From Candidatus Bathyarchaeota archaeon (GTDB lineage: Archaea; Thermoproteota; Bathyarchaeia; Bathyarchaeales; Bathycorpusculaceae), in NCBI GenBank assembly GCA_963828195.1, contig CAWHDT010000005.1, positions 256,001 through 320,000 on the forward strand: 64,000 bases of DNA, written 5' to 3'. Numbering within the stretch: position 1 is the stretch's first letter; the number at the start of each line of letters is the position of its first letter. Shown piece after piece: positions 22,962-23,155 of the stretch. The notes beneath the pieces were generated by a model, which had not been told where the DNA came from, did no database searches, and saw nothing but the letters and a program-made list of their open reading frames with translations. Position numbers and translations under genes: made by a program.

Positions 22962-23057
22962 TTCATTGCCTCTCCTTTTTGAAATTTATACTCTCGTCTA
23001 CAGAAGGATTGATTTGCAAATTTTTCAACGGATGCTTCAGAGGGTTCCCTGGACAGT

Positions 23058-23108
23058 TCAAAGAATAAGTACCCGACGATTCCAGCTATTGAGGTGACGA
23101 TCCCTCAT
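23058..23108 (-). CDS. Putative branched-chain amino acid leader (attenuator) peptide, 16 aa
   Basis: GAGGA SD, then ATG...GTA CTT ATT CTT TGA, giving MRDRHLNSWNRRVLIL*; stop lies about 96 nt before ilvB. Confidence 0.7.
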   Translation of the reverse strand: MRDRHLNSWNRRVLIL

Positions 23109-23155
23109 CTTAATTCCTCTTGAAATCCACGTTCCCTAAAAATAGATAATTGTAC

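Follow-up and report, generated by a model that had tools for sequence, protein, structure and literature searches.

We analysed a window of 64,000 nucleotides (nt) from a Candidatus Bathyarchaeota archaeon (assembly GCA_963828195.1, contig CAWHDT010000005.1, positions 256,001 to 320,000), whose minus strand carries a short open reading frame (ORF) just upstream of ilvB. We lean slightly towards the view that this upstream ORF (uORF) is a translated leader that senses the supply of branched-chain amino acid (BCAA) tRNAs, as a derived, Bathyarchaeia-specific, ribosome-mediated attenuator of the ilvBN-leuCDBA mRNA. On comparative grounds, the sequences of relatives establish the ORF, its Shine-Dalgarno (SD) site and start codon, the fixed positions of its BCAA codons and its compatibility with a common fold.

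A leader ORF with its own SD site recurs upstream of ilvB

A first-pass annotation of the window had described, upstream of ilvB, a GAGGA SD site, an ATG and 16 codons ending in GTA CTT ATT CTT TGA, followed by a spacer of about 96 nt without a long U-run. All of these are present on the minus strand; the spacer between the leader stop and ilvB measures 96 nt, with no run of T longer than 3. The elements of the leader are the following:

23120-23115, minus strand: SD-like site AGAGGA of the leader ORF, also the 5' arm of helix P1 (see below)
23108-23058, minus strand: leader ORF of 16 sense codons, MRDRHLNSWNRRVLIL, plus TGA (ATG 23108-23106; TGA 23060-23058)
23084-23070, minus strand: second repeat unit TGG AAT CGT CGG GTA (W-N-R-R-V), ending in Val13 (GTA, 23072-23070)
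23069-23061, minus strand: variable tail CTT ATT CTT (L-I-L) just before the leader stop
22976-22959, minus strand: ilvB SD site AGGAGAGG (22976-22969) and start ATG (22961-22959)

A gap of 7 nt separates AGAGGA from the ATG, after which the codons read AGG GAT CGT CAC CTC AAT AGC TGG AAT CGT CGG GTA CTT ATT CTT, so that BCAAs make up 5 of the 15 residues after Met. The second unit is a direct repeat (GG-AT-CGT) of the first, AGG GAT CGT CAC CTC. The ilvB gene itself is a 570-amino-acid ORF for the large subunit of biosynthetic acetolactate synthase (TIGR00118, 746 bits; cut-off 538).

Conservation was assessed in upstream regions picked through IlvB homology alone (n = 82). RTG-AGG-GAT with an SD-like site was found in 80 of them, with ATG as the start in 51 and GTG in 29, and never a C or T in first position. 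By rank, the leader ORF with its SD site was present at all 22 other loci of the same genus, in 51 of 52 further genomes of the same family (regions that came from 56 ilvB-bearing genomes among 151 searched) and in 6 of 7 genomes from other families of the order. GAGG or GGAG lay at -18 to -4 in 76 of the 80 leaders, and the other four had GGGG or GGTGA, which still pair with the 3' end of the genome's 16S rRNA, GGATCACCTCCT. At the same distance, GAGG or GGAG preceded 210 of 930 long ORFs of the window's genome and occurred in 5.5% of random 15-mers. The 18-nt leader core was unique in the 2.83-Mb genome with up to three mismatches allowed. These comparisons indicate that the recurrence of the leader ORF is more than chance.

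An exact-pattern scan over genomes of 185,579 species returned at least 120 loci. Among the matches listed, the motif occurred almost only in Bathyarchaeota/Bathyarchaeia records; ilvB lay downstream in 102 and a LeuC/HacA-family gene in 10, 2 were cut by the locus end, and 6 were chance matches in bacterial or high-GC DNA. The window's genome is likewise archaeal by its small-subunit rRNA, which scores 1477 bits with an archaeal model as compared with 1092 bits with a bacterial one. At the leuC-type loci (L085, L107, L115, L116, L131, L138, L144, L148, L176 and L196), an MRDRFL-type uORF (MRDRFLFR-stop, MRDRFLRR-stop) lies about 155-180 nt upstream of the LeuC/HacA-family gene (NF001614, 649 bits). 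Since the leader is linked to ilvB and also to leuC, its association with leucine/BCAA operons extends over two gene contexts, and before one or the other gene the leader is kept in well over a hundred Bathyarchaeia genomes. We also observed that the SD site of the leuC-type uORFs, AGAGGYUG, pairs with CAGCCUCU downstream. At one locus (L173:3517-3696), a 1-nt insertion in the tail fuses the leader frame in frame with ilvB (MRDRHLNSWDRRVQLLLICPG...MTKMSGAQ); either an error of assembly or a natural read-through variant may account for this.

Two BCAA positions are kept, and the tail is variable

Alignment of the ilvB upstream regions upheld the ORF but not the part of it on which the first-pass annotation had laid stress: the tail varies, and Leu6 and Val13 are kept instead. 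As judged from the aligned sequences, the kept core is M-R-D-x-Φ-Leu(CUC/CUU) plus the second unit ending in Val13 (GUA), not the VLIL tail. The ORF begins with a constant RUG AGG GAU. Codon 4 is mostly Arg (CGT 85, CGC 46, AGA 3, CGA 2), with Cys, Ser, Asn, His and Thr also found, and codon 5 is variable (H, F, V, Y, I, T, R). Leu occupies codon 6 in 149 of 153 leaders (CTC 143, CTT 6), and Val (GTA) does so in 4. The second unit of the window's type reads UGG GAU CGU CGG GUA, with Val13 encoded by GTA in 109 of 109 leaders, and the two repeat units share one reading frame, whichever comes first.

The last three codons, on the other hand, changed from leader to leader. Within the genus (n = 23), LIL was found 7 times, QLF 4 times, QLL, HFY and FIL twice each, and LVL, QIS, QIL, LFC, LFL and PRN once. 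The unique leaders of the window's type (n = 109) had 36 distinct tails of 0-10 codons, LIL being the commonest (30). Counted by sequence, BCAA codons made up 199 of 431 tail codons in frame (46%) versus 146 of 646 in the other two frames (23%). Length varied as well, from 6 to 23 codons across the family, with peptides such as MRDRFL, MRDRFLQV, MRDRYLI, MRDRILKHVRFLRII, MRDCVLEKHCFVHTPN and MRDRHLNSWDRRVPTDCFI (all given up to the stop), and some relatives stop straight after Val13 or after Leu6 (MRDRFL-stop). The multivalent attenuation that had been proposed from the run of Val, Leu, Ile and Leu codons was accordingly sustained in part: a leader ORF is kept before a BCAA operon and BCAA sensing is its best reading, but the V-L-I-L run is not kept.

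Leaders of other kinds precede ilvB elsewhere in Bathyarchaeia and in a family outside the class

Among 201 Bathyarchaeia genomes, 144 had ilvB, and we inspected 60 upstream regions from other families or orders. BCAA-run leaders, defined by at least 7 BCAAs among the last 10 codons of a stop-terminated frame, were found in 18 of 59 such regions, as compared with 1 of 59 reverse complements and 21 of 2000 random stretches of the genome that holds the window. Examples, given up to the stop, are ..LLIVVVLLV, PLIVIVILI, VVVIII, LILVVVLLV, ILVLLIIILP and AIVVSVVLVLIVL. In all 17 BCAA-run leaders examined, counting from the stop's first base, a hairpin starts at 0-5 nt, and 8-34 nt separate its end from ilvB; these hairpins had a mean z of -2.6, with 12 of 17 at z<-2.

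The MRD type was met in 8 of the 60 regions from other families, with its two units in the opposite order (MRDIRVRRNRYLH..), and one lineage kept ...SRDSVL-stop behind a 4-codon N-terminal extension. A further ten regions, from three families, carried ATG GGG TAT CGY TTY NTY, that is, MGY(R/C/S)(F/V/I/S)(I/V/L). These MGY-type uORFs often stand two or three in tandem, or are fused into one ORF (MGYRFILSPGFWGDRFLRR). Their codon 6 was Ile in 10, Val in 4 and Leu in 2 of 16 copies, thus using three first bases and never giving Phe. The tandem copies are located as follows:

-236 to -125 relative to the ilvB start: tandem MGYRF-I/V/L uORFs at loci L246, L252, L255, L256 and L263

In the tandem copies, a CCCCC..GGGGG hairpin is formed by the 3' part of the first uORF, and the 3' arm of this hairpin provides the SD site of the following uORF; at least in its sequence, the arrangement resembles a translational relay. 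Four of the 60 regions, all from one family, had no leader, a leuA/cimA-like gene standing directly before ilvB. At the loci of family f7 (L028 and L205-L208), the gap between this gene (...EAMLSGMNVLM...) and ilvB is at most about 20 nt and contains neither promoter nor leader. Several MRD-type families also have a leuA/cimA-like gene upstream, with the promoter and leader lying between that gene and ilvB.

Of 121 genomes from the phylum but outside the class, 87 had ilvB. In family f39, which belongs to another class and has small, AT-rich, mostly closed genomes, ATG-started Leu/Val-rich ORFs were found in 12 of 15 ilvB regions. They have 14-20 codons and lie 30-75 nt upstream of ilvB (e.g., MSIKSTKIIGNVLLVVLL and MSYSLTAPFVGLLVELVL, up to the stop), at these loci:

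L284-L289, L305 and L307-L312: Leu/Val-rich leader ORFs of family f39

Since their starts fall about 26-30 nt after a TATA-like box, the f39 ORFs may be leaderless, and since the f39 genomes are mostly closed, some may belong to cultivated organisms. Outside the class, the 43 regions from other families all fell short of the BCAA-run threshold, and the reverse-complement controls there gave 0 of 38 and 2 of 20. A scan of the window's own genome for leader ORFs with runs of Trp, His, Phe, Thr, Arg, Met, Lys or BCAA codons returned 83 candidates, mostly poly-T artefacts and none convincing.

BCAA-run versions thus span several Bathyarchaeia orders and one family of a second class. The window's tail and the BCAA-run leaders may be read as having a common origin, both containing ATCGTC..GTA..ATTCT..stop..CCyAGG, a resemblance noted by eye. 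Altogether, the window's leader is best read, on this comparison, as a derived member of a wider family of archaeal ilvB/leu leader ORFs.

The leader is compatible with a fold that involves its own SD site

Three helices, P1 to P3, were proposed from folds of genus leaders and tested on 99 distinct sequences over 14 pairs. P1 joins the leader SD site (AGAGG) with CCUCU just past the ORF, and P3 joins CUGGG in codons 8-9 with CCCAG 5-8 nt past the stop. In the window, the arms are placed as follows:

23107-23090, minus strand: helix P2, a UGAGG..CCUCA hairpin with the start codon in its 5' arm and Leu6 (CTC, 23093-23091) in its 3' arm
23053-23049, minus strand: 3' arm of P3, UCCAG, with its partner CUGGA (23085-23081) within the ORF; 94.7% of cells paired in the 99 sequences
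23044-23039, minus strand: CCCTCT, the anti-SD-like 3' arm of P1; 92.5% of cells paired

The pairs between the leader SD site and CCUCU could form in 82-97 of the 99 sequences, depending on the pair, and P1 to P3 together were 95.5% paired versus 36-62% when the partner was slid along. The variation in P1 was one-sided. P2 appeared in nearly all minimum-free-energy folds and, as none of its 4 core pairs varies among the 99 sequences, showed no covariation. The minimum-free-energy fold of the window's own leader pairs the SD region with the tail instead, and RNAalifold, run on the 99-sequence alignment, recovered nothing beyond P2 and, in the second unit, a weak G-U hairpin. The P1-P3 fold is thus compatible with the aligned sequences, short of proof.

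The first-pass annotation had also pointed to CCCTCT, to TCCTT (23008-23004) and to an imperfect GAAG..TTGA/TCAA..CTTC pairing in the spacer. All three are present as described; the GAAG/CTTC hairpin is not conserved. A scan of 22700-23700 against Rfam 15 had SNORD22 on the opposite strand as its sole match up to E = 10 (14.8 bits, E 5.4). T-box-like tRNA sensing and a K-turn were dropped as candidates because the motifs they need are absent, as judged from sequence, from the minimal leaders.

How the leader might act on ilvB

In the BCAA-sensing model that we favour, a ribosome would bind AGAGGA and read the 16 codons, among which Leu6 (CUC), Val13 (GUA) and, in the window's lineage, the Leu-Ile-Leu before the stop would be the regulatory ones. 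The leader ORF would sit within the fold, with its own SD site in P1, its start codon in P2 and its codons 8-9 in P3. A ribosome dwelling on the BCAA codons would hold this fold open, while fast termination would let it close and shut the leader off. From the arrangement of these parts we infer ribosome stalling, a switch of the fold and an output to ilvB. As to the latter, the held ribosome might prevent premature factor-dependent termination or mRNA decay in the 96-nt untranslated spacer. Relief of such termination or decay seems more likely than unmasking of the ilvB ribosome site.

The first-pass annotation had favoured an effect on translation initiation, with CCCTCT and TCCTT masking the ilvB SD site. 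This was not borne out, and we rejected masking of the ilvB SD site by leader segments for the window's family. Folding with and without the ribosome-covered segment brought no shift in the accessibility of the ilvB site (values below). Duplexes of the uORF and of the post-uORF segment with the ilvB ribosome site were no better than those of shuffles (mean z +0.22 and +0.42), and the post-uORF segment reached z<-2 against that site in 1 of 60 cases. Against the leader's own SD site, the same segment had a mean z of -1.0, with 13 of 60 at z<-2. The post-uORF duplexes therefore favour the leader SD site over the ilvB site, and CCCTCT, read as CCUCU in the RNA, is the partner of the uORF's own SD site.

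The BCAA-run leaders of other orders gave an unpaired probability of the ilvB site rising from 0.41 to 0.53 with the ribosome mask (12 of 20 up). Pairing of the BCAA-run tail with the ilvB site was seen there in minimum-free-energy folds, yet 0 of 20 beat dinucleotide shuffles, and we rejected it as a candidate; it may be an effect of composition.

Weighing the readings

A BCAA-tRNA-sensing leader is the best reading because BCAA-rich leader ORFs are common before ilvB in other orders and in family f39. A number of observations weigh against it. Over 102 unique peptides, the BCAA share is 24.1%, which is the proteome level (23.5%), and Arg makes up 24.5% of the leader peptides versus 3.8% of the proteome, for which a BCAA-sensing model gives no reason. 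Among the 109 tails, 11 hold no BCAA at all, and counted by distinct tail the enrichment is only 53 of 158 (34%) versus 60 of 246 (24%) off frame. The minimal MRDRFL-stop, and MRDRFLFR-stop before leuC, hold a single BCAA codon. Codons 2-3 keep GGnAU while their residues vary (R/G/W and D/Y/N), and Leu6 is confined to CUC/CUU, though these are 36% of the genome's Leu codons; because of both, the constraint at the nucleotide level must be called strong. For comparison, GAT makes up 45% of the genome's Asp codons and AGG 15% of its Arg codons. As regards the fold, double changes occurred at only 1 of 14 pairs (in P3, G-C to A-U, in 8 sequences including the window), column shuffles paired at 95.2%, and the window's leader was no more stable than shuffles (z -0.08 over 115 nt; +0.86 over 187 nt). 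As regards the output, the predicted unpaired probability of the ilvB ribosome site over 153 leaders was 0.52 when free and 0.50 and 0.53 when ribosome-masked. A scan with bacterial models, which are uninformative for an archaeon, found no hairpin of the terminator kind followed by a U-tract on the leader's minus strand; the only terminator-like site of this promoter/terminator scan lies on the plus strand. T runs of at least 5 were present in only 51 of 153 spacers, on which account we rejected an oligo-T terminator after the uORF as a general output, and the leader has no obvious antiterminator alternative.

The base constraint in codons 2-3, the richness in Arg and the repeat units therefore leave room for three other explanations. 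The leader RNA might bind a trans-acting factor or a small ligand through its GGnAUCGY repeats and P1-P3, the factor setting whether the leader SD site and start are exposed, and the ORF being incidental or else the regulated output. We give this a modest chance. It would account for bases being kept whatever the residue (codon 2 AGG, GGG or UGG; codon 3 GAU, UAU or AAU), for AUCGY falling in different frames in different leader types, for the stretches UGAGGGAU, ACCUC and GGGUA being invariant in the 99 sequences, for units coming in one to three copies, and for T/C polymorphisms that exchange Trp and Arg while preserving G-U or G-C pairs. It fits less well with a universal core of only about 18 nt plus an SD site at fixed distance, with a start that is always ATG or GTG, with SD variants that preserve complementarity to 16S rRNA rather than one sequence, and with a codon 6 that always encodes a BCAA despite differing bases. 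Nor does the leader match an Rfam family or fold more stably than shuffles, and no candidate factor can be named. Constancy of the peptide would be expected if a metabolite caused M-R-D-R-Φ-L (MGYRFI in the sister family) to stall in the ribosome tunnel at or close to the stop, which we consider improbable. Residues 4-6, R-(F/H/Y/V/I)-(L/I/V), are indeed kept across families through different codons (Arg CGT, CGC, CGA or AGA; Phe TTC or TTT; position 6 CTC, ATT or GTC), the shortest forms are hexapeptides ending at the motif (MRDRFL-stop, MGYRFI-stop), and the motif persists as ...SRDSVL-stop behind the N-terminal extension of the lineage mentioned above. However, position 4 tolerates C, S, N, H and T and position 5 tolerates H, F, V, Y, I, T and R, codons 2-3 preserve their bases but encode radically different residues, and the BCAA-run leaders elsewhere in the class do without such a peptide.

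We consider it very improbable that the DNA is instead an operator for a transcription factor and the ORF functionless. Such an operator could lie in the GAGGGA-TCGT-CACCTC inverted repeat, in the direct GGGATCGTC repeats or in the spacer near-palindrome TTGAAAAATTTGCAA; the DNA does have dyad and direct-repeat symmetry, and archaeal BCAA genes are often under Lrp-type regulators. But at P3 positions 24-32 of the 99 sequences have G-U pairs, which follows the rules of RNA and would make mismatches in a DNA dyad, the SD site and start codon are kept, and the palindrome is not kept across the genus. The sites would also lie at about +30 to +75 from the presumed transcription start, downstream of where archaeal repressors usually act.

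Beyond the window, the BCAA-sensing reading can be widened, tentatively and with more doubt than confidence, to the proposal that Thermoproteota archaea control BCAA synthesis by ribosome-sensed leader ORFs, the window being a modular form built on the unit NGG-NAU-CGY-xxY-(Leu/Ile/Val). In this modular form, a lone BCAA codon at position 6 would possibly lie in the 3' arm of the start-codon hairpin. The units would, again only possibly, be single (MRDRFL-stop, MGYRFI-stop), doubled in one ORF as in the window, or arranged as tandem relay uORFs.

Relation to known systems

The classical bacterial ilv/leu attenuators are the leaders of E. coli ilvBN, ilvGMEDA and leu. The window's leader resembles them in being a short ORF, predicted to be translated, that precedes a BCAA operon, contains BCAA codons and overlaps predicted RNA pairings that a ribosome could break, and the BCAA-run ORFs of other Bathyarchaeia orders (..LLIVVVLLV-stop, with a hairpin directly after) are closely similar. 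It differs in its archaeal host, in having no U-tract terminator hairpin, in carrying few BCAA codons at fixed sites (Leu6, Val13) and no run, and in a core, MRDxΦL, under strong constraint at the nucleotide level. Archaeal RNA polymerases are not known to use the hairpin-dependent terminators on which bacterial attenuation relies. In translational attenuation of the ermC/cat type, a ribosome stalled on a leader ORF alters downstream expression without a classical terminator; in the window, by contrast, 96 nt separate the leader from the ilvB ribosome site, for which no sequestration by the leader is predicted, and tRNA charging would take the place of a drug as the signal. Metabolite-sensing arrest uORFs, such as the MAGDIS hexapeptide, the fungal arginine attenuator peptide, TnaC and SpeFL, share with MRDRFL-stop and MGYRFI-stop a very short conserved peptide ending at or near the stop. 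In the window's family, however, residues 2-3 are kept as bases and not as amino acids, and arrest would here be hypothetical.

The accessible part of a study of bacterial motifs (PMC10272879) describes uORFs before ilvB in the ilvB-II, ilvB-OMG and ilvB motifs of Corynebacterium, other bacterial phyla and Leptospira. These have in-frame starts and stops and encode BCAA-rich peptides of variable length, and were first suspected to be structured RNAs. They share with the archaeal leader a conserved region before ilvB that holds a short ORF; all are bacterial, and that part of the study does not describe the N-terminal unit and the SD:anti-SD pairing of the archaeal leader. Leaderless polycysteine short ORFs, on which a stalled ribosome likewise affects the gene downstream, are present in mycobacteria, according to the portion available of bioRxiv 10.1101/834739, and the f39 ORFs may be similar in being leaderless. 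In the accessible text of a paper on the production of valine by a methanogen, attenuation is mentioned with bacterial references only. In the literature searched, most subscription journals being outside reach, we found no description of leader-peptide attenuation of this kind in archaea.

If the modular, ribosome-sensed reading were true, these leaders would give archaea their first described amino-acid sensor of the attenuation type, with an output logic independent of bacterial hairpin terminators. They offer a concrete and widespread test case for coupled transcription-translation in archaeal regulation and for what replaces the bacterial terminator. They also flag short regulatory ORFs that gene callers overlook in uncultivated lineages.

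Other features of the locus

The remaining elements of the locus are listed here:

23170-23156, minus strand: putative archaeal promoter, with a GTAAGC resembling the transcription factor B recognition element (BRE) and a TATA-like TTTTATTT (23163-23156), from the alignment of genus leaders
23028-23014, minus strand: near-palindrome TTGAAAAATTTGCAA, within the uORF-ilvB spacer
23000-22987, minus strand: conserved spacer box TAGACGAGAGTATA, the best-conserved block between uORF and ilvB in the genus
22961-16304, minus strand: operon downstream of the leader, comprising ilvB, ilvN, leuC-family, leuD-family, leuB-like and leuA genes (NCBIfam matches)

In the alignment of 23 genus leaders, cTTTTTATTT was the best-conserved block upstream of the uORF, and other families have an equivalent AAAnCTTTTTAAA block about 55-60 nt upstream of theirs. 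From this spacing we infer that transcription starts some 30 nt before the uORF ATG. A candidate second promoter in the spacer (the TATA-like TATAAATT, or else a AAAAATTT box) has a spacing to ilvB that varies within the genus, and the genome-wide profile of TATA positions, weighed in this connection, is flat. The near-palindrome is perfect (TTGAAAAATTTTCAA) in the closest relatives only and semi-palindromic in the rest of the genus; it may resemble Lrp-type archaeal operators.

In a metatranscriptome (one run, 5% of sampled words), an RNA-library contig from a relative spans 22860-23114 and bridges the uORF and the beginning of ilvB. The contigs of this run stem from relatives (85-95% alike) and are uninformative on transcript starts and ends; no coverage lay upstream of about 23150, an absence to which we attach no weight. 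A two-codon mini-ORF, ATG AAA TGA (22966-22958, minus strand), shared with the closest relatives only, lies across the called ilvB start (ATGAAATGACC) and is probably unused because the GAGG of the SD site ends just 2 nt before its ATG. Upstream of the leader, an ORF of 100 amino acids with a Lys/Glu-rich C-terminus (23645-23343, minus strand) had no match to an NCBIfam family. Finally, the motif search picked up three identical stretches starting with ATGAGGGATCTGGCAAGCTCAAGAGGAG, with identical 25-nt upstream flanks, at G000 C1:5178(-), C1:442892(+) and C5:742992(-); they are probably copies of a repeated mobile element, unrelated to the leader.

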